Shown piece by piece: positions 11,919-51,385 of a DNA stretch of 64,000 nucleotides. Numbering within the stretch: position 1 is the first letter of the stretch; every line of letters begins with the position of its first letter. The notes under the pieces were generated by a model. It made no database searches. It had not been told where the DNA came from and saw nothing but the letters and a program-made list of their open reading frames with translations. The DNA comes from an uncultured Candidatus Saccharibacteria bacterium (GTDB lineage: Bacteria > Patescibacteriota > Saccharimonadia > UBA4664 > CAZJNH01), in NCBI GenBank assembly GCA_964547425.1, contig CAZJNH010000005.1:17703-81702 (forward strand), written 5' to 3'. Made by a program: the position numbers and the translations under genes.

Positions 11919-14027
11919 TTATTCCTCGATAGTAATATCTTCAACGCTCGCGGCTTCGTCGACGGAGCTGACTAGAACATCGCGGGGGCGGGCGCCGTCG
12001 GGCGGGCCTATTACTCCTCGTTCTTCGAGGATGTCGAGCAATCTGGCGGCACGGGCGTAGCCAACTCGTAATCGGCGTTGGAGTAGCGATGCCGAGGCCT
12101 TGCCGCTGCGAATAACCGTGTCGGCCGCTTCCTGGAACAAATCATCATCTCCGCTTGAGCCATCAAAATCGTGGCCGCGGCCTCCGGCACCCATATGCAC
12201 CGGCTGTGTCAGCACCTCTTCGTTGTAACTCGGCTCCCGTTCCTTTTTAAGGTATTCAGTGACGGCCTTGATCTCTTTTTCGCTGATGAAAGTACTTTGA
12301 ATCCGTTTCGGCTTAGGAGTCTCGGACGACATATATAGCATGTCACCACTGCCCAGCAGCTTCTCGGCGCCACCTTGGTCAATGATCACCCGCGAGTCGA
12401 CTTGCTGGGCCACCGTAAACGCCAATCGGGCCGGCACGTTGGCTTTAATGAGTCCGGTAATGACGTTCACACTCGGTCTCTGAGTCGCCAGTACCAGGTG
12501 AATCCCGGTCGCGCGCGACATCTGCGCCAGCCGGACGATTGCTGACTCCACTTCCTGCGAAGCGACGTGCATCAGGTCCGCCAGCTCGTCGATTACGACT
12601 ACGATATAGGGCATACCCTCATCCTTTTTGGCGGAGTTGTACTCTCCGATATTGCGTTTACCAACCTCGGCAAACAGCTTGTACCGGCGCTCCATCTCCA
12701 TCACCGTCCACTTCAGCGCCGAGATACATTCCTTGGGTTCAACGATCACCGGCGACAGCAAGTGCGGGATGTTGTTGTACATCGTCAGCTCCACCCGCTT
12801 AGGGTCAACCAGGATAAGCTTTAGATCCGAAGGCGAGTTGCGGTAAAGCAAACTCATCAGGAAAGTATTGATCATAATCGACTTACCGGAACCCGTGGCA
12901 CCGGCGATCAGCATATGAGGCATTTTGGCGAGGTCCGCGATCATCGGCTCTCCCGAAACGTCACGGCCGAGAACGAAAGTCAGCGGCGACTTTGAGGCCT
13001 TAAACTGATTCGAGCCTACCAGGTCCCGCATCCGCACCAAGGCCGGCTTTTTGTTGGGGATCTCAATGCCAACCGCGCTTTTGCCCGGAATCGGCGCCTC
13101 AATCCGCAGTGGATGCGCCGCTAGCGCCAGGCTCAAGTTGTGGTCGAGTTGCGTTATTTTGTTCAATTTTACGCCGCTCTCCGGCTTGATCGTATATTGA
13201 GTAACTGTTGGACCCACGTTGACTTCGCCGAGGCCAACTTCGATGCCGAAACTCTCCAAAGTTTTGTGGATAGTCGCGGCGTTTTCCTTGATATTACCAG
13301 CGTCCGGCTGGGTGGTAGTTTCTTCGAGTAAATCAAGCCCTGGCCCCTTCCAGTCTGGGTCGGCGCCGGCGGTCAGCGGCTCAAACTCTTGCTGCGCCGG
13401 AGGCTTCCCGCCCAGCGTTCCACGGATCGGTAATTTGGTTGAAAGTACGGCGCTCGCGGGGTCATTAATGGCAAACTCGTCCTCGTTCCCGCGCCGAAAT
13501 AATTTCATTATCAGATGCCAAACGTCGCTTAATTTGGTGTTAGTGGCGACGATGAAGCTGATGAGTAAAACCGCGATCAGCAGAATGATCGAAGCGGTCT
13601 TGTTCGCCAGCCTGAGCAAGCCAAGACTAACCAGGTAGCCAATGACTCCGCCGCCAACGCCGTCTTTGGCGTGCTGCAGGGCGTTGTCGGAGTACGGCAG
13701 ATGCATTAGACCGGCTAGAGCCACAACGATCAGGAAAAGTCCGATGTAGTTGTTGGCCCGCATCTGGTATTTCTTTGGCTGAAAGAGCAGCCACGCCAGC
13801 AGGAAAAACAGCAGCGGCAGAACGTATGCGACCCAGCCAACCAGTATCCTCAACCCCGTTAATGTCCAAGATAACAGCGAACCGCCGACCCCAAACATTG
13901 CCAGAATCAAAAGGAATGCGAGCGCCACAAGGACAATCGCTGTAATCTCGGCAACTAGTTCGGGATCCAGCTGCGGCCTAAGGCTGGGCAAATCCCTTTT
14001 TTGCTTGCGTTTCTTCCGTCGCGCCAT
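11919..14027 (-). CDS. ftsK: DNA translocase FtsK
   Basis: N-terminal TM helices, Walker A GATGSGKS, and C-terminal gamma/wHTH domain. Confidence 0.9.
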   Translation of the reverse strand: MARRKKRKQKRDLPSLRPQLDPELVAEITAIVLVALAFLLILAMFGVGGSLLSWTLTGLRILVGWVAYVLPLLFFLLAWLLFQPKKYQMRANNYIGLFLIVVALAGLMHLPYSDNALQHAKDGVGGGVIGYLVSLGLLRLANKTASIILLIAVLLISFIVATNTKLSDVWHLIMKLFRRGNEDEFAINDPASAVLSTKLPIRGTLGGKPPAQQEFEPLTAGADPDWKGPGLDLLEETTTQPDAGNIKENAATIHKTLESFGIEVGLGEVNVGPTVTQYTIKPESGVKLNKITQLDHNLSLALAAHPLRIEAPIPGKSAVGIEIPNKKPALVRMRDLVGSNQFKASKSPLTFVLGRDVSGEPMIADLAKMPHMLIAGATGSGKSIMINTFLMSLLYRNSPSDLKLILVDPKRVELTMYNNIPHLLSPVIVEPKECISALKWTVMEMERRYKLFAEVGKRNIGEYNSAKKDEGMPYIVVVIDELADLMHVASQEVESAIVRLAQMSRATGIHLVLATQRPSVNVITGLIKANVPARLAFTVAQQVDSRVIIDQGGAEKLLGSGDMLYMSSETPKPKRIQSTFISEKEIKAVTEYLKKEREPSYNEEVLTQPVHMGAGGRGHDFDGSSGDDDLFQEAADTVIRSGKASASLLQRRLRVGYARAARLLDILEERGVIGPPDGARPRDVLVSSVDEAASVEDITIEE

Positions 14028-14066
14028 AACCTATATTATACCTGTTAGCGTAAGCTCTTTATAGTT

Positions 14067-14981
14067 CTAATGTGCCAGGACAATCGTGCCAAGAATAATT
14101 ATCGCGGCGGCCAGGACCTTGCGAGTAAGATGTTGGCGGGAGATATTTTCCTTGATGATATGAGGAAAAAAGATGGTAAGTATTGCGCCGAACCCAATTA
14201 GATAAATCGCTTGGACACTCATTACCGCCTGCACGATCGCCACCGGCACCAGCAACATGGCATAGCGCATGGCCGCAAGGCCGCTCAAGTTCAGCAGCTC
14301 GTTGGCCTCGCCCAGGCTTAGGGCTACGACTTTATGCTTTGACAGTAGATCCAAAAATCCCCGCCGAGCAGACCGGCTAAGGCAAAAGACCGTAATCGAA
14401 GCGATCAAACCAGCCGAAAATTCGTAGAACTGCGTGGGCACATACGACGATTCAACTGCTACGAACTTAAAGACAATGTTACTGAAGGCAATTGCAAGCG
14501 AAGCGACAGCCATCAACCAAAACACCCGGCGGTTAAACGTGGTCTTGCCGGAGGTTTTATCGAGGTTGATTGAGATGGAGCCTAGTAGAATCAGCCCTAT
14601 CCCCGCCAGTTCGAGTAACGATAAGGACTCATGCAAAAAAATTAGCCCCAGGACGTAGTTCGCCACAATGATCATCTGGAATAGTGTTGCCACGACCGAC
14701 GTTTCAGCGACCTTCAACGCCCGGTAATAGACATAAAAGGCGGCGGTTGTGAGTAGCCCGACCAATATGCCTCCGAGCGCGTTGCGTAAGCTGTAATGGG
14801 CTAGTTGATGGCGCGCGAACCAGCCAAAAACAATTAAAAGCGGGGTAACACAAAGGCCGGTCAAGATAGTTACCGGACCAGCAGAGTCTCCTTCCGCGAT
14901 GCGCGACAACAAATACTTCTCGATGAAGTTTGTCGACGCAAACAGTAGCGGCGCGATTAAGGCTAAAGCAAACCACAGCAT
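14067..14981 (-). CDS. DMT-superfamily (EamA-like) transporter
   Basis: About 10 TM helices. ORF 14067..15293 was trimmed to the MLWFALALIAPLLF start, because the upstream extension has no membrane or coding character. Confidence 0.7.
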   Translation of the reverse strand: MLWFALALIAPLLFASTNFIEKYLLSRIAEGDSAGPVTILTGLCVTPLLIVFGWFARHQLAHYSLRNALGGILVGLLTTAAFYVYYRALKVAETSVVATLFQMIIVANYVLGLIFLHESLSLLELAGIGLILLGSISINLDKTSGKTTFNRRVFWLMAVASLAIAFSNIVFKFVAVESSYVPTQFYEFSAGLIASITVFCLSRSARRGFLDLLSKHKVVALSLGEANELLNLSGLAAMRYAMLLVPVAIVQAVMSVQAIYLIGFGAILTIFFPHIIKENISRQHLTRKVLAAAIIILGTIVLAH

Positions 14982-15054
14982 GCTTCCAATTCTAAGCCAA
15001 AACGCTATACTTATCCGCACGTTCGATCCGGAAGGACTTTGACAAGCGAGGAGG

Positions 15055-15138
15055 GTTAGATGCGTCTGTTCATTCACCGGCTGGTCAACGCACCAGAGCC
15101 GCCAAGAGGGATCTTCGACGAAGACAGCCAGAGTCCCG
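15055..15138 (+). CDS. Possible 27-codon leader ORF (MRLFIHRLVNAPEPPRGIFDEDSQSPE)
   Basis: A GAGGAGG RBS lies 5 nt upstream of the ATG. The ORF is too short for the ORF track. Speculative. Confidence 0.25.
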
Positions 15139-15152
15139 AATAGGAGGAAATA

Positions 15153-15356
15153 GTGGCAAAGGCGTGTGCGGAGCAATGCTGTCCCGGGAAGAGAATCTTC
15201 TCGACTCATGACGAGGCCCAGCGGCACATCGGCCGAGTCCGAATGCAGATGGGATGGCGGCTGAGGGTTTACAAGTGCCCGAAGTGCAAGCATTTACACG
15301 TGAGCAGTTCGGAATCCAGAGGGAGGAATAAAGCCGGGACAAGGAGAAAACGATGA
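15153..15356 (+). CDS. Small zinc-ribbon protein (Cys cluster CAEQCC...CPKCKH), function unknown
   Basis: GTG start 5 nt after an AGGAGG RBS; 67 aa, basic, with a C-x3-CC...C-P-x-C-x-H motif. Confidence 0.55.
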   Translation: MAKACAEQCCPGKRIFSTHDEAQRHIGRVRMQMGWRLRVYKCPKCKHLHVSSSESRGRNKAGTRRKR

Positions 15357-15625
15357 AGCCGGTTATCACTAGCTTGCCTCCCGAGTTATTTGAGGCCTGC
15401 CAGACTCTGGCCACAGTACTCGGGATCGAGGTTGGTGAATTGATGCTCGAGATCACTTGGGAGTTCATCGAAATGATCGAAGGCGACCTTGAGCTCCTGG
15501 GAAGACTGACCAACCACGACAGGTCAGTCAGGTTGGCCTTGAACTCGGCGGTAAGCCTGCGCAACCGCGAGCGTCAATTGAATGGCGCTAAACCGGCAAG
15601 CAAGCTGAGGGGAGGGCTGCGATGA
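15353..15625 (+). CDS. Small acidic protein with basic C-terminus, function unknown
   Basis: ATGA overlap with the upstream ORF, AGGAG RBS, 90 aa. Confidence 0.5.
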   Translation: MKPVITSLPPELFEACQTLATVLGIEVGELMLEITWEFIEMIEGDLELLGRLTNHDRSVRLALNSAVSLRNRERQLNGAKPASKLRGGLR

Positions 15626-15723
15626 AAAAGAAGCACCTGTGGCTCATCGGATTGTTGCTGCTCGCGGCGATAGTTCCCCTCTGGAAGCGCTGGTGGGGCA
15701 CTCTGCCGAGTTTCGAGAACTGA
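15622..15723 (+). CDS. Hydrophobic 33-aa peptide (MKKKHLWLIGLLLLAAIVPLWKRWW...), single TM helix
   Basis: ATGA overlap with the previous ORF; strongly hydrophobic core. Speculative. Confidence 0.3.
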   Translation: MKKKHLWLIGLLLLAAIVPLWKRWWGTLPSFEN

Positions 15724-15869
15724 TGGATACATTCCCTTGGCCAATGATCGTCGAGAAGTTCTCCTCGGCGATCAAAGAGCCCAGCGCAAAGCAGCAGAAG
15801 CTGCGCGAGCTGGCCGACAAGACGCTCAAGTTCAACCCGGTCGATCCCGACAAACCGATCGGGGGATGA
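15721..15869 (+). CDS. Small protein (49 aa), function unknown
   Basis: The start overlaps the preceding stop (TGATG). It is part of the ORF-track entry 15639..15869. Confidence 0.35.
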
Positions 15870-15870
15870 A

Positions 15871-16056
15871 ATGGCGGTCATAATTGTTCCTGCGCTTAGT
15901 TCGGGACCTTCAAGGCCGATCAGGAAAACCAAGGAATTGGTCGAGGTTGTCCAGAACGGTCGGTTCTACGAACGTAACGCCAAAGAGGTTTGGCCGTCGT
16001 CGATCAAAGCTCAGCCTGCATTGGCTGAGCTGTTCCGAAATAGAGAGTGGCATTAA
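15871..16056 (+). CDS. Small protein (61 aa), function unknown
   Basis: ATGAAATG junction with the previous ORF; a terminator hairpin follows. Confidence 0.4.
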   Translation: MAVIIVPALSSGPSRPIRKTKELVEVVQNGRFYERNAKEVWPSSIKAQPALAELFRNREWH

Positions 16057-16086
16057 AAGCCCGGGCGCGCATCGATGATGCGCCCG
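16044..16086. terminator. Bidirectional intrinsic terminator (GCCCGGGCGCGCATC...GATGCGCCCGGGC flanked by A4/T4)
   Basis: About 13-bp GC-rich stem with an A-tract on the left and TTTTCTT on the right. It sits between the convergent small-ORF operon and rnj. Confidence 0.65.
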
Positions 16087-16094
16087 GGCTTTTC

Positions 16095-17894
16095 TTATAT
16101 TTCGATGACGACGGGGACGATCATCGGGGAACGTTTGGTTTGCTTGTAGAGGAAGTCGCTCAAATCGTCGCGGAGGCGTAGTTTAAACCGGTTCCAGTCG
16201 TTGGGTTTGTTGGGGCTGGCCTGGCGCTTAGCAAAAGCCTGGCGCACTTCGGCGCGGGCTTTGGCGATCAACTCCTCGTTTTCCTTCATATAGATGAAGC
16301 CGCGGGAGATGACATCAGGGCTCGTAATCATCCGGCCCGTCTTTTTCTCAACGGTCGCAACGACTACGAATATGCCATCCTTAGCCATCGCCAGCCGGTC
16401 GCGAAGGACGATGCCTTCCACGTCACCTACTCCCGAACCATCGATCATAATCATCCCGGCCTTCACACTTTCGCCTTTTTTAGCGACACCGGGCTGGGCA
16501 AGCTCCAAGACATTGCCATTATCCAAGACGAATACATTTTTTAATTCAATGCCATTTTTAGTCGCCAGTTCGGCGTGGCGCATCAGGTGATGGAACTCGC
16601 CGTGGATCGGCACAAAGTACTTCGGATGGATCAGCTTAATCAGCTCTGCCAGATCATCCCGGCTAGCGTGGCCAGAAACGTGCAAAGGGCCGCAGTCGTC
16701 CAGCTGTCGGTGGATGTGCTGGAAGACCTTGGAACCTTCGCGCAGCAAGCCATCGACCGTATGGACCACCGAAACTTCATTTCCGGGGATCACACTCGAA
16801 CTCATAATCACGCTGTCGCCCGGCTTAATCTTGATAAACGGATGGTCACCGGTCGCCATTTTGTTTAAGACGGAGTTGATTTCACCCTGGTGTCCGGTGC
16901 ACATCACAGCCACCGTCTTGTCGGGCATCTTGGCCATATCCTGCAATCTAATGATTAGCCCGGCCGGGATGCGAAGGTAGCCGAGTTTGACCGCCAGCTC
17001 GACGTTGGCCAGCATTGAGCGGCCAGCGAAGGCCAGCTTGCGGTTGGTCATCTCGCACGCCTTAATTACTCCCTGCATCCGGTGGATGTTACTGGAAATA
17101 GCCGACACAATAATCCGGCCTTTAATGCGCTTAAACAGCTCCTCAAAGCTCGGTTCAACGACCTTCTCGCTCGGGGTCCGGCCGAGCTGTTCACAGTTGG
17201 TACTGTCGCTCATGAGCAGCAGTACGCCTTGCTTGTCGGCAATCTCTTGCAGCCGAGGGAGGTCCATTAATTTCCCATCGATCGGCGTACGGTCGAGCCG
17301 CCAGTCGCCGGTGTGGACGATCACTCCGACAGGAGTTTCGATTACCACGGCACAGGCGTCCGGAATCGAGTGGGTTACCCTGACCAGTTCAATCTTGAAG
17401 ACGCCCAGCTGAATTTTTTCGTGTTTATCGGGGTCGATTACCCGCATCACCGGCTGAGTTTTGAGCCGAAATTCGACCAGTTTTTTCTCGATCATACCGG
17501 CGGTAAAGCGCGACAAATATAAAGGGGCCTGGACTTTCGGCAAGACGTAAGGTATGGCGCCAATGTGGTCTTCGTGAGCGTGGGTAATGATGTAGGCTTT
17601 GACCTTGTGCTTGTTCTGCTCGAGGTAGGTAATGTCGGGAATGACGTAGTCGATCCCCGGCTGGGAGTCGTTGGGGAAGGCAAAGCCGGCGTCGACCACA
17701 ATAATGTCGTCACCGTATTCGATTGCCATCATATTTTTGCCGACCTCGCCCAAGCCGCCGAGCGGAATTACGCGGACAGTCGGAACACGGTTGGCCACGT
17801 TGGCCTGCCTCGGTTGAGGCTGGGGATTTTGATTTGGTTTTGGAGCTGCATTTTGCCCCTGGGGCTGCGGTTTAACCGCAGTTGTTGGATTCAT
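16095..17894 (-). CDS. rnj: Ribonuclease J (metallo-beta-lactamase/beta-CASP)
   Basis: HAHEDHIG motif, beta-CASP region, 599 aa with a Pro/Gln-rich N-terminal extension. Confidence 0.85.
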   Translation of the reverse strand: MNPTTAVKPQPQGQNAAPKPNQNPQPQPRQANVANRVPTVRVIPLGGLGEVGKNMMAIEYGDDIIVVDAGFAFPNDSQPGIDYVIPDITYLEQNKHKVKAYIITHAHEDHIGAIPYVLPKVQAPLYLSRFTAGMIEKKLVEFRLKTQPVMRVIDPDKHEKIQLGVFKIELVRVTHSIPDACAVVIETPVGVIVHTGDWRLDRTPIDGKLMDLPRLQEIADKQGVLLLMSDSTNCEQLGRTPSEKVVEPSFEELFKRIKGRIIVSAISSNIHRMQGVIKACEMTNRKLAFAGRSMLANVELAVKLGYLRIPAGLIIRLQDMAKMPDKTVAVMCTGHQGEINSVLNKMATGDHPFIKIKPGDSVIMSSSVIPGNEVSVVHTVDGLLREGSKVFQHIHRQLDDCGPLHVSGHASRDDLAELIKLIHPKYFVPIHGEFHHLMRHAELATKNGIELKNVFVLDNGNVLELAQPGVAKKGESVKAGMIMIDGSGVGDVEGIVLRDRLAMAKDGIFVVVATVEKKTGRMITSPDVISRGFIYMKENEELIAKARAEVRQAFAKRQASPNKPNDWNRFKLRLRDDLSDFLYKQTKRSPMIVPVVIEI

Positions 17895-18588: not shown

Positions 18589-20694
18589 TTACTGGTCGAC
18601 GGCTTTTTTGGAGAGCTTGAGACGTCCTTGGGGATCAATCTCGGTTAACTTAACCTTTATGATATCACCTTCCTTCAGCTCATCCTCAACTTTCTCAACC
18701 CGGTGGTCGGCGATCTGTGAGATGTGTAAGAGGCCGTCTTTGCCCGGCATAATCTCTACGAACGCGCCAAAGTCTTTGATCGAAACGACTTTGCCTTCGT
18801 AGATCCGGCCGATCTCGGGGTCTTCGGTCAGACCCTTGATCCATTCAATCGCCTTTTCGGCGGCGGGCTGGTCATTTGATGCAATCATCACGAGTCCGTT
18901 GTCCTCGATGTCGATCTCGACTCCGGTTTCGGCGATGATCTTATTGATCATTTCGCCGCCTTTGCCGATAACCACTTTGATCTTGTCGGGGCTAATCATC
19001 AGCTTGTGGATCTGCGGCGCGAATTTGGACAGTTCGGCCCGCGGCTTGTCGAGCGCTGCCATCATCTTACCCATAATGTGAGCCCGGCCTTCCTTAGCTT
19101 GAGCTAGCGCATGGCGCATAATCTCGGGCGTAATGCCTTTAACTTTAATGTCCATCTGCAGGGCGGTAATACCGTCGTCGGTCCCGGCCACCTTAAAGTC
19201 CATGTCACCGGCAAAGTCCTCGGCTCCGGCGATGTCGGACAGGATCACAAACTGGTCACCATCGGTCATCAGTCCCATAGCGATTCCGGCCACCGGCTTT
19301 ACCAGCGGCACTCCGGCGTCCATTAGTGAAAGGGTTGAACCGCAAACACTGGCCATGCTGGTCGAACCGTTTGAGGCCAAAGCCTCCGACACGGTGCGAA
19401 TAGTGTAAGGAAACTCCTCGACATCGGGAATCATCGGCTCTAACGCCCGCTCGGCCAAGGCTCCGTGGCCAATTTCGCGGCGGCCCGGGCTACGCATTGG
19501 GCGCACTTCGCCGGTCGAGTATGGCGGGAAGTTGTAGTGGTGCAAATAGCGTTTGGTAGTGTCCTCTTCCATAGTGTCGATCAACTGGGCGAAACTCGTT
19601 GACGCCAAGGTCGTAATGTTCAGGATCTGCGTAGTGCCTCGAGTAAACAGCGCCGAACCGTGGGTCCGGGGCAAAACTCCGACTTCGCAGGTAATCGGGC
19701 GAATCTCGGTGGTCTTGCGGTTGTCCGGCCGGTGGCCTTCGGAGAGAATCGCCCGGCGGATTTCTTTGTCGATAGCTTTGTCGAAAGCCACTTTAATCTG
19801 GTCGATCGCGTGATCACCTTCGAATTTGGCGATGACTTCTTTGGCTAGATTCCCCAGTGTGTCGTGGCGGGTGTACTGGTTCTCGTGGCGAACGGCGGCG
19901 CCCAGCTTGTCTTTGAGGTAATCGTCGACTTGCTTGGCTAGGCTCTCATCAACCTTATAAAGCTCAAATTCCTTCTCTTTGACGCCTAGTTCCTTGCGCA
20001 TCTGCTCCTGCAGCTCGATCACCGGTTGGATGGTCTTGTGCGCCAGCTCAATAGCCTTAATCATGGTCTCTTCATCGACTTCGCTGGCCCCGGCTTCGAC
20101 CATCATAATGGCGTCCTTAGTGCCGGCAACGGTCAGGTCGAGTTGGCTGTTTTCCAGCTGTTCGGTGGTTGGGAACGGCACGAGCTCGCCGTTAACCAGT
20201 CCGACCCGGATGCCGGCAACCGGGCCTTCAAAGGGCGCGCCGGACAGGTTTAGAGCCGCCGAAATGGCGGTGATGGCAATGATGTCAGGTGAGTGGATTA
20301 AGTCGGCCGACAACACCGTCGCCACGCCCTGAACATCGTTGCGGTAGCCTTTGGGAAACAATGGCCGGATCGGCCGGTCGATTAAGCGCGCCGATAGCGT
20401 TGCGTGCTCGCTGGCACGGCCTTCTCTTTTAATAAAGCGCGAGCCGGAGATTTTGCCGGCGGCGTACATCCGCTCTTCGTAATCAATCAAAAGCGGGAAA
20501 AAGTCGATGCCTTCGCGCGGCTGGTTAGCCACCACAACGGTGCCCAAAACCACCGTATCGCCATAGCGGACGGTCACGGCGGCGTCGGCCAAAAAGGCCA
20601 TTTTGCCCGTTTCGATTGTTAGTTTGCGTCCCGCGAATTCGGTTTCGAATCGCTTAATATTGTCCGCGTCGTGCGGACCAATCAGGTTTTCCAT
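18589..20694 (-). CDS. pnp: Polyribonucleotide nucleotidyltransferase (PNPase)
   Basis: 701 aa with two RNase PH domains plus KH and S1 domains. Confidence 0.95.
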   Translation of the reverse strand: MENLIGPHDADNIKRFETEFAGRKLTIETGKMAFLADAAVTVRYGDTVVLGTVVVANQPREGIDFFPLLIDYEERMYAAGKISGSRFIKREGRASEHATLSARLIDRPIRPLFPKGYRNDVQGVATVLSADLIHSPDIIAITAISAALNLSGAPFEGPVAGIRVGLVNGELVPFPTTEQLENSQLDLTVAGTKDAIMMVEAGASEVDEETMIKAIELAHKTIQPVIELQEQMRKELGVKEKEFELYKVDESLAKQVDDYLKDKLGAAVRHENQYTRHDTLGNLAKEVIAKFEGDHAIDQIKVAFDKAIDKEIRRAILSEGHRPDNRKTTEIRPITCEVGVLPRTHGSALFTRGTTQILNITTLASTSFAQLIDTMEEDTTKRYLHHYNFPPYSTGEVRPMRSPGRREIGHGALAERALEPMIPDVEEFPYTIRTVSEALASNGSTSMASVCGSTLSLMDAGVPLVKPVAGIAMGLMTDGDQFVILSDIAGAEDFAGDMDFKVAGTDDGITALQMDIKVKGITPEIMRHALAQAKEGRAHIMGKMMAALDKPRAELSKFAPQIHKLMISPDKIKVVIGKGGEMINKIIAETGVEIDIEDNGLVMIASNDQPAAEKAIEWIKGLTEDPEIGRIYEGKVVSIKDFGAFVEIMPGKDGLLHISQIADHRVEKVEDELKEGDIIKVKLTEIDPQGRLKLSKKAVDQ

Positions 20695-20790
20695 TTACTC
20701 CTTTAATTTTGGTGAGTAAGTTTCAGGGTCCAGACCCGCCTCGGCGGATCAAAACTCTGCCACTTACTAACCTCTAATTATTTAATGTGC
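20695..20790 (-). promoter_or_regulatory. pnp leader with long stem-loop (candidate RNase III/autoregulatory site)
   Basis: Nested inverted repeats GUAAGUGG...CCGCC-GAG-GCGGG...CUUACUCACC lie between rpsO and pnp. Confidence 0.4.
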
Positions 20791-21057
20791 TTAGCGCCGA
20801 AGATCGAGCTTTTTGAGGATCGCCGTGTAGCGCTTGATGTCGGTCTTTTGCAGATACTCGAGCAGACTGCGCCGTTTGCCGACCATTTTGACCAAGCCGC
20901 GGCGGCTGTGCTCATCCTTTTTGTGGGTCTTCAAGTGCTTGGTCAGTTCTTTGATTTTCTCGGTGAAAATCGCGACCTGAACCTCCGGTGAACCGGTGTC
21001 TTTCTTGTGGGTCGCAACCCCGCTGATTACTTTGGATTTTTCGGCGGTTTTTAGCAT
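20791..21057 (-). CDS. rpsO: 30S ribosomal protein S15
   Basis: Conserved ...[20 protein letters not shown].... ORF-track start trimmed to the internal Met (MLKTAEK). Confidence 0.85.
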
Positions 21058-21163
21058 CGCAATGGGTAATTCTACCAGTTCCGCTCTCACGTTTCAACCA
21101 TTAGGGTTAACTTGATAATTGCGTTTGCGGGAGTCGGCCAAGTGCCGACCCCCGCTGTGTTCC

Positions 21164-21415
21164 TCAGTCCGTCATGAGGCGATCCTCAGTTAATGCGAAC
21201 AACCATAGCATCTTCGCATGACGCGGAGAGGTTACGAGAAGTCGCGCTTCCTCCGCCGAGATGCCAGCGAGACGGATCATCTCTAGCAAGCGGCGAGGTG
21301 TAGGAACGGAACTTCTGTGAGGCGTTGAGGCATCGAGCGCCGACTGAATACGATCTAGGTCATCGGCCGAGAGATCGTCGTCGAGGGCGCGCTCGAGCAG
21401 TTCAATAGCGGTCAC
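21164..21415 (-). CDS. Small acidic protein (83 aa), function unknown
   Basis: GTG start preceded by a GAAAGGAAAG RBS. It lies downstream of copy 1 of the 28-bp promoter-like motif. GC is higher than in flanking genes. Confidence 0.45.
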   Translation of the reverse strand: MTAIELLERALDDDLSADDLDRIQSALDASTPHRSSVPTPRRLLEMIRLAGISAEEARLLVTSPRHAKMLWLFALTEDRLMTD

Positions 21416-21558
21416 TGTCTTTCCTTTCGTTTCACGGAAATGAACAGGGTCGCTTTAATAGGAGGTGTGTCTGACAATGTGGTCAGTATTACACGCAAAA
21501 CTCCTCACTTGAGGGGACATTTGAAAGAGCGTAGAGCGTAATTAGTTTACACTATTTA

Positions 21559-21586
21559 TGCTTATCTGTCAATAGCTGTTATGGTT
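21559..21586 (-). promoter_or_regulatory. 28-bp repeated promoter-like motif, copy 1 (TGCTTATCTGTCAATAGCTGTTATGGTT)
   Basis: The minus strand reads TTGACA-17-TAAACT. The same sequence recurs at 22280..22307 with 1 mismatch. Confidence 0.5.
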
Positions 21587-21663
21587 ACCTTTCGTCCTTT
21601 TGGACTCATCAGAGTGAACACGCATTCACTGAGGTTGCCCGGTTTAACCCCCGGGCTGGGCTT

Positions 21664-21894
21664 TCAGTCGAATACGAAACCAATTCGTTCGTAATCTTGC
21701 TTTCGTGAGTAAGGCGCGCCCAGTAGGATGCGCACTTCTTCCCAAAAGTGATGGACGCTCTGCACCGTAAAGAGCTCTGTGCCTGGAGCGGGCTGGATGG
21801 CTTCACCCACAACAGGCAAACGCTCCCAGGGGTGATCTTCCAGAACGAGTTCGCCCCAGCCGACCTCACAATCGATGTACAAGACCAGTTTCAT
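21664..21894 (-). CDS. Small protein (76 aa), function unknown
   Basis: ATG start 8 nt after an AGGAGG RBS that overlaps the stop of the upstream ORF. Confidence 0.45.
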   Translation of the reverse strand: MKLVLYIDCEVGWGELVLEDHPWERLPVVGEAIQPAPGTELFTVQSVHHFWEEVRILLGAPYSRKQDYERIGFVFD

Positions 21895-51295: not shown

Positions 51296-51385
51296 TGGCG
51301 GAGAGGGAGGGATTCGAACCCTCGATGCCCTTGCGGACATACGCGCTTTCCAAGCGCGCGCACTAGGCCACTATGCGACCTCTCC
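51296..51385 (-). tRNA. tRNA-Ser (anticodon GGA), type II with long variable arm, CCA encoded
   Basis: Manual fold. Acceptor GGAGAGG/CCUCUCC; D-stem GCA/UGC; anticodon stem CGCGC/GCGCG with loop UUGGAAA; 6-bp variable-arm stem; T-arm GAGGG-UUCGAAU-CCCUC; discriminator G followed by CCA. Confidence 0.8.

Follow-up and report, generated by a model that had tools for sequence, protein, structure and literature searches.

Between the conserved gene for RNase J (rnj) and a gene for an EamA/DMT transporter, both on the minus strand, a 64-kb stretch of contig CAZJNH010000005.1 from an uncultured Candidatus Saccharibacteria bacterium carries a cassette of six very small plus-strand open reading frames (ORFs). 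This whole stretch is referred to as the window, all coordinates are window positions unless a contig or locus is named, and the ORFs are called o27, o67, o90, o33, o48 and o61 after the length of their products in amino acids. The initial annotation of this DNA had described the six ORFs and their two minus-strand neighbors, and all of them are present (Table 1). The ORFs tile positions 15060-16056, and the spacing at their junctions ranges from −4 to +9 nt. It had also been stated that each later start overlaps the preceding stop, which holds for three of the five junctions (ATGA at 15353, ATGA at 15622 and TGATG at 15721-15725) and fails for o27-o67, where a gap of 9 nt is found, and for o48-o61, where the gap is 1 nt.

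Table 1. Positions of the cassette ORFs, their predicted control elements and the flanking genes within the 64-kb window. aa, amino acids; SD, Shine-Dalgarno sequence.
Feature	Position	Strand	Description
o27	15060-15143	+	27 aa, ATG start, SD GAGGAGG 6 nt 5' of the start
o67	15153-15356	+	67 aa, GTG start, SD AGGAGG
o90	15353-15625	+	90 aa, SD AAGGAG, ATGA overlap with the o67 stop
o33	15622-15723	+	33 aa, SD GGGGAGGG, ATGA overlap with the o90 stop
o48	15723-15869	+	48 aa, no SD, TGATG overlap with o33
o61	15871-16056	+	61 aa, SD-like GGGGGA, start 1 nt past the o48 stop
Candidate −10 box TATACT of the cassette promoter	15006-15011	+	tentative, read from the sequence
Bidirectional intrinsic terminator hairpin	16055-16093		arms AAAAGCCCGGGCGC ... 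GCGCCCGGGCTTTT
EamA/DMT transporter gene	14067-14981	−	divergent neighbor; Pfam EamA on the public gene call
rnj (RNase J)	16095-17894	−	conserved flank, convergent with the cassette

The organization of translation signals was examined by scoring each SD as the energy of its duplex with CCUCCU. Strong sites at a suitable distance precede five of the six starts (−7.1 to −10.3 kcal/mol), with values of −10.3 for o27, −9.9 for o67, −7.1 for o90, −10.3 for o33 and −8.6 for o61, compared to −3.0 kcal/mol for o48. The strong ribosome-binding sites claimed for the first three ORFs were therefore recovered, and those of o33 and o61 proved strong as well. As background, 3.3% of the ATG or GTG codons in the window reach −8 kcal/mol, and the median of long host genes is −2.8 kcal/mol. 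When the interval was shuffled 1000 times with its dinucleotides preserved, 0.3% of the shuffles gave a chain of six abutting ORFs, and no further chain of at least four ORFs shorter than 100 codons was found on either strand of the whole window.

Codon usage, a comparison that the initial annotation had suggested, was scored per codon with a log-odds model for which 39 long genes of the window served as the training set; host genes score 0.32 ± 0.17 in frame and −0.53 ± 0.36 off frame. Four of the six ORFs fall within the host in-frame range (o48, the highest, at 0.43, o90 at 0.24, and o33 and o27 at 0.22 each), whereas o61 (0.05) and o67 (−0.19) are intermediate. The proposed frames are the best of the six possible frames over most of the region, and the best regional coding signal lies in the o90 frame. 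Coding on the opposite strand was considered and ruled out, as the ORFs found there (159 and 114 aa) score −0.23 and −0.02 and have no SD site. A single long gene broken by frameshifts was also ruled out, because the concatenated product is without relatives and an SD and a start codon are present at every junction. By these signals, the run of ORFs looks like a genuine, translationally organized small-gene operon and not like a product of chance.

Two parts of the cassette allow more than one gene model. The o27 and o67 ORFs share one reading frame, which is split by a single TAG (15141-15143) followed by three codons, and this TAG is itself part of the o67 SD sequence TAGGAGGA. On this arrangement, o27 may encode a leader peptide, or it may be an N-terminal part of o67 that has become detached; the pair could be a leader with a site for reinitiation behind it or a 98-codon gene with a nonsense codon. 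Further downstream, an alternative ORF of 76 aa starting from GTG 15639 (15639-15869) uses the o48 frame and runs over o33 in another frame. Over the span common to both, it scores 0.20 compared to 0.05 for o33, and because of this slightly better score the 33-aa membrane peptide is not secure. The sole other copy of the cassette is found on a Logan contig of identical DNA (L001), where the public gene caller independently predicts o90, o33 and o48. On the same contig, the DMT gene is called as a 369-aa product (L001 2780-3889, corresponding to window 14067-15176) that lies antisense over o27 and the beginning of o67. A start at 14981, with a product of 304 aa and a −10-like box ahead of it, fits better and is probably the true one. 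The public call is thus overextended across o27 and the beginning of o67, and o67 is therefore missing from protein databases.

Candidate signals for transcription lie at both ends of the cassette. The TATACT box sits in the 78-bp divergent region common to the cassette and the DMT gene; a consensus promoter scan returned no site in the interval of this box. A mirror −10-like box, TAGAAT, lies on the minus strand 13 nt before the DMT start. At the other end, the hairpin begins within the stop codon of o61 and ends at that of rnj. Its arms (16055-16068 and 16080-16093) pair perfectly over 14 bp, with AAAA before and TTTT after, and the free energies of −30.7 kcal/mol on the plus strand and −28.6 kcal/mol on the minus strand correspond to z scores of −4.1 and −4.3 relative to shuffles. 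A GC-rich hairpin, an A-run and a T-run, and a stability beyond that of shuffles are all found together, as in bidirectional intrinsic terminators, in agreement with the strong GC-rich terminator that had been proposed to serve both the cassette and rnj. No Rfam family was found in the cassette region, and one sub-threshold sX11 match lies over the terminator.

Within the window, TAnAnT (−10-like) boxes were also observed 9-16 nt before the start, together with the lack of an SD, in 8 of the 39 long genes compared to 2.7% of all ATGs. Examples are the starts at 14027 (ftsK), 14981 (DMT), 37160 and 62105/62127. This pattern suggests that leaderless mRNAs are frequent in the source organism, in contrast to which the cassette is SD-led.

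The origin of the cassette is best approached through o67, which carries the signature C..K..[YF]....A...Y.CP..C..[WFL]H.[TS]. When 1.84 billion representative proteins were searched exhaustively with phmmer, a concatenate of o67, o90, o61 and o48 as the query gave three matches only: o90 itself, o48 itself and one relative of o67, here called P0003. This relative is a 105-aa protein from short high-GC contigs (L082-L085). Its gene also stands in a run of overlapping small genes, and the protein has an additional Cys/His-rich extension at its C-terminus (CDPTAPGSCWICAHAEGEH). The o67 sequence matched three PHROGs weakly (15216, 3424 and 14788), all of unknown function, and two of these were also matched by P0003. 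A profile of o67 and P0003 recovered P0003 alone, a word-indexed search with o67 alone gave no match, tblastn of o67 and P0003 against annotated phages and plasmids gave no significant match, and a scan of viral contigs with o67 as a single query found none. Scanning the viral contigs with the o67/P0003 alignment identified small proteins bearing the same motif, encoded in two of the contigs between the terminase large subunit gene and the portal gene, and a scan with the back-translated motif located it in at least 120 viral contigs.

A family hidden Markov model (HMM) was then constructed from 109 viral-contig proteins, with o67 excluded from the build. Among 1534 ORFs of the window, the HMM scores o67 at 39 bits with an E value of 5.7e-11, and the next ORF has an E value of 0.6. 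The alignment spans the N-terminal C-x-G-K-R-x-[YF]-x-[ST]-x3-A, a segment that was not used in collecting the members. The residues that are invariant in the family alignment (C10, Y40, C42, P43, C45 and H49) are all intact in o67, and the near-invariant K13 and A22 are present. The near-invariant Trp (48) is replaced by Leu and the near-invariant Thr (51) by Ser in o67; Phe variants at the Trp position were found in viral contigs. At the level of sequence, these results place o67, as a divergent member, in a widespread family of small phage Cys3His (CCCH) proteins.

The family itself lacks an assigned function. Canonical members match PHROGs 15216, 3424, 1820, 38682 and 14788, all labeled "unknown function", and have no match among Pfam families; the family has no solved structure, and a literature search on the family motif and the PHROG numbers found nothing usable. 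In cultured phages, members are annotated as "hypothetical protein", as in Rhodococcus phage Weasels2, Achromobacter phage Mano and Microbacterium phage Jacko. The genes around them in phages belong to DNA metabolism and packaging and include HNH endonucleases, methyltransferases, terminases, replication initiators and SSB. Members are sometimes fused into larger proteins of up to 1530 aa (viral loci L166-L295, with the signature C..K..Y....A...Y.CP..C..WHLTS). Searching about 1.5 Mb of related Saccharibacteria loci with the family HMM identified no member, and o67 is encoded outside any phage genome or prophage, with ftsK, DMT, rnj and UDG as flanking genes.

An AlphaFold2 (AF2) model of o67 has a core with a pLDDT of about 80 and a beta-alpha-beta-beta arrangement that places the CPKC knuckle between two strands. 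Its structural neighbors in BFVD are small phage proteins, two of which are N-terminal domains of helix-turn-helix DNA-binding proteins. The Cys cluster of o67 (CAEQCC...CPKCKH) had been read as a zinc ribbon. The assignment to a zinc-binding type of protein was retained; however, the likely ligands are C10, C42, C45 and H49 (CCCH). The CAEQCC cluster as such is not the site, as the family does not conserve C5 and C9. Through this predicted Cys3His site, o67 would bind zinc. Pfam zinc-ribbon models score o67 at 13-14 bits, far under their gathering thresholds of 26-27. A relation to C2H2 fingers was also considered and rejected as motif repetition, since the PDB profile matches covered the YxCPxCG linker only. 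The protein is strongly basic (pI 10.9). Given the 18 Lys/Arg among its 67 residues and its basic tail, nucleic acid is its most likely binding partner, and it would act either as a small regulator of phage type or as an accessory factor that binds DNA or RNA.

The initial annotation held that no product of the cassette resembles a housekeeping protein, and indeed none of the six gave a significant match in Pfam, NCBIfam or PADLOC; the PADLOC-DB 2.0 defense models returned zero families. No relative of o27, o90, o33, o48 or o61 was found in the 128 viral loci collected, viral-contig scans with o90 and o61 as single queries gave no match, and o27 had no homolog in any search, related loci included. 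A word-indexed search with the five ORFs other than o67 concatenated gave no match and also missed the self protein, so this search was probably uninformative. The description of o90 as acidic with a basic tail was borne out, with a pI of 4.1 for residues 1-55 and of 12 for residues 56-90. A single-sequence AF2 model of o90 is all-helical (pLDDT 61.6; helices 10-23 and 27-44), and its N-terminus reads as strand-helix-helix, a lead toward a ribbon-helix-helix (RHH) fold. No Pfam RHH family matched o90, a PDB sequence search returned noise only, and Foldseek gave no match with the low-confidence monomer model, which cannot form the dimeric RHH strand. In o33, a KKK N-terminus is followed by a single hydrophobic span of 17 residues with a Kyte-Doolittle mean of 2.14. 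The hydrophobic span of the proposed single-TM peptide is thus present, but the roles of "membrane peptide" and "acidic partner" are readings of composition only. The o48 product is hydrophilic and that of o61 basic, and o27, o48 and o61 are featureless beyond composition.

The genomic setting was compared across relatives. RNase J places the window in Saccharibacteria/Patescibacteria, where the nearest genome is 67% identical and the nearest metagenome contig 64%. The gene order g701 (PNPase-like), UDG, rnj and ftsK is conserved in 67 relatives, and the gap between rnj and ftsK, whose contents are unrelated, measures 86 to 4556 bp (among loci L002-L081, the extremes are L010 7726-7811 and L020 6230-10785). 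Different relatives harbor methyltransferases, an IS200/RayT-like transposase, MarR and ArsR regulators, a second rnj copy or orphan ORFs in this gap. The IS200/RayT-like transposases were observed in loci L005 and L018, and the second RNase J-like gene (569 aa) lies directly downstream of rnj in L004 (6516-8225). The rnj-ftsK interval is a hotspot of gene turnover across Saccharibacteria.

Conservation and synteny of the cassette had been suggested as a check; the cassette was looked for at the rnj loci of relatives and was not found there. None of its ORFs and no DMT gene occurred in 160 related loci (about 1.5 Mb), and the DMT gene in particular had no tblastn match in 80 related loci and is not in the rnj-ftsK gap of any relative. 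Because the gap varies, its contents are unrelated and neither element is found in relatives, we regard the cassette and the DMT gene as lineage-specific fillers of a variable spot. The cassette has a GC content of 55% compared to 53% for the host, and in trinucleotide distance it ranks at the 84th percentile of 1-kb windows, so that its composition lies within the host range. No flanking repeats were found around 14028-16094, and the only tRNA in the window, at 51296, is not beside the cassette. The usual marks of a prophage or genomic island (an integrase, direct repeats or a tRNA, and atypical composition) were thus not seen at the cassette. Elsewhere in the window, about 1 kb (20694-21748) is devoid of ORFs of at least 120 aa, and the GC content falls to 0.44 near 21400-21700.

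On the basis of these observations, we suggest, with a probability of about 0.55, that the cassette is a phage-derived accessory small-gene operon, either moron-like or a surviving fragment of an early region. It occupies the hypervariable rnj-ftsK slot, and at least part of it would be of phage origin. Judging from the signals described above, transcription would start in the 78-bp divergent region, and initiation would occur at the strong SD sites of the first ORF and of four later ORFs. Termination-reinitiation coupling would be allowed at the ATGA, ATGA and TGATG junctions, and transcription would stop at the hairpin common with rnj, so that the six ORFs would be expressed as one operon. 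The o90 product, helical with an acidic N-domain and a basic tail, may be a partner of o67 or a second regulator, and o33 would insert into the membrane. The host may retain the cassette, or the cassette may be in slow decay. The initial annotation had proposed a phage-derived or a toxin-antitoxin-like or anti-defense module. Phage affinity was supported for the o67 gene only, by the family HMM, the PHROGs and BFVD, and for the block as a whole a phage origin is inferred. The toxin-antitoxin, anti-defense and defense parts gained no support: PADLOC, Pfam and NCBIfam gave no significant match, a toxin or antitoxin domain could not be recognized, and relatives showed no conservation. A plausible route for phage genes into Saccharibacteria is provided by the prophage of an actinobacterial host that binds and weakly infects the cultivated Saccharibacterium TM7x (PMC13578794), although this says nothing direct on the cassette.

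Several observations weigh against a phage-derived operon. Only one of the six genes has any relative, the cassette is known from a single genome and its composition is host-like. No integrase, att repeat or phage structural gene is near it, the codon statistics of o67 are poor and those of o61 marginal, and the shared frame of o27 and o67 with its TAG could mean decay. The last two points also bear on the explanation that survives best among the alternatives, a decaying remnant in which o67 was the only gene that was ever functional, as a phage gene, and the rest is a dead fragment of an old insertion with unexpressed or defunct ORFs. The lack of homologs for five products even in the exhaustive search, the lack of conservation in relatives and the ambiguity between o33 and the 76-aa alternative fit such a remnant. 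However, random decay would not set strong SDs 5-9 nt before five successive starts or create ATGA and TGATG junctions, the codon usage of o90 and o48 is host-like in frame, the terminator is intact at the end of the cassette, and all conserved ligand residues of o67 are preserved. We consider a dead remnant unlikely.

A little less probable again is an operon of small proteins that is native to this Saccharibacteria lineage and has not arisen recently from a mobile element. The likeness of o67 would then reflect an old, broadly distributed zinc-binding domain. Such an origin agrees with the host-like composition and with the lack of mobility genes and repeats, and the sampling of the lineage is so poor (best RNase J 67%) that missing homologs are weak evidence. 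Nevertheless, the o67 family is abundant in viral contigs and PHROGs and has no member in the 1.5 Mb of related Saccharibacteria loci, and the content of the slot differs in every relative. The least probable explanation is a compact conflict module (toxin-antitoxin, abortive infection or superinfection exclusion) with o33 as a membrane-damaging effector and o67 and o90 as regulators or neutralizers, for although the size and hydrophobic profile of o33 resemble small membrane toxins, the N-terminal strand-helix-helix of o90 is compatible with an RHH antitoxin or repressor, and a phage-type gene at a variable location suits accessory conflict genes, none of the products matches PADLOC, Pfam or NCBIfam, o90 has no fold match and its RHH assignment no statistical support, and six genes are atypical for toxin-antitoxin systems.

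If the phage-derived operon is real, the cassette would be a tangible example of a Saccharibacteria chromosome in which a phage-type gene has become fixed; direct contact between phages and bacteria of the candidate phyla radiation (CPR) has only recently been shown by experiment (PMC13578794). The analysis also draws attention to a very common and unnamed phage family with a sharply conserved Cys3His site, and it illustrates how an overextended call of a neighboring gene, here the public DMT call, hides small genes from protein databases. We see only a slim chance that the cassette serves its CPR host as a functional conflict module of phage origin, in which the CCCH protein and a helical RHH-like partner would control the 33-aa membrane peptide in superinfection exclusion or abortive infection; if true, this would offer a first entry point to the function of the large phage CCCH family. 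With the cassette in one genome, current concepts are unchanged.

Among known systems, zinc-ribbon transcription factors (Pfam Zn_ribbon_NrdR, DUF6431 and TFIIB-type) share with o67 the CPxC knuckle after a beta-strand, but o67 remains well below their Pfam thresholds. Type II toxin-antitoxin systems with RHH antitoxins and type I-like toxins are likewise small coupled operons, and the cassette resembles them in one short membrane peptide and a possible RHH N-terminus. It differs in having six genes instead of two, with no evidence of an antisense RNA, no recognizable toxin or antitoxin domain and no library match (noise only, at E values up to 10). The small phage CCCH proteins are closer. 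With them o67 shares the whole signature, from the N-terminal Cys, K-x2-[YF] and Ala to Y-x-C-P-x-x-C-x2-aromatic/Leu-H, as well as length, basic character and the predicted beta-alpha-beta-beta topology. It departs from them in the Leu and Ser replacements and in its place on a cellular chromosome with no phage genes around, and since no function has been assigned to the family, membership gives no mechanism. For the cassette as a whole, the nearest counterparts are phage morons and the small-gene blocks of phage early regions. Unlike morons, it lies outside a prophage and has no compositional contrast with its host. Like these blocks, it is autonomous, with a probable promoter, strong SDs, start/stop overlaps and a terminator, and it combines small orphan proteins with a phage-family gene at a variable site. 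The finding is an orphan accessory operon together with a divergent member of an uncharacterized phage family, both of known kinds.

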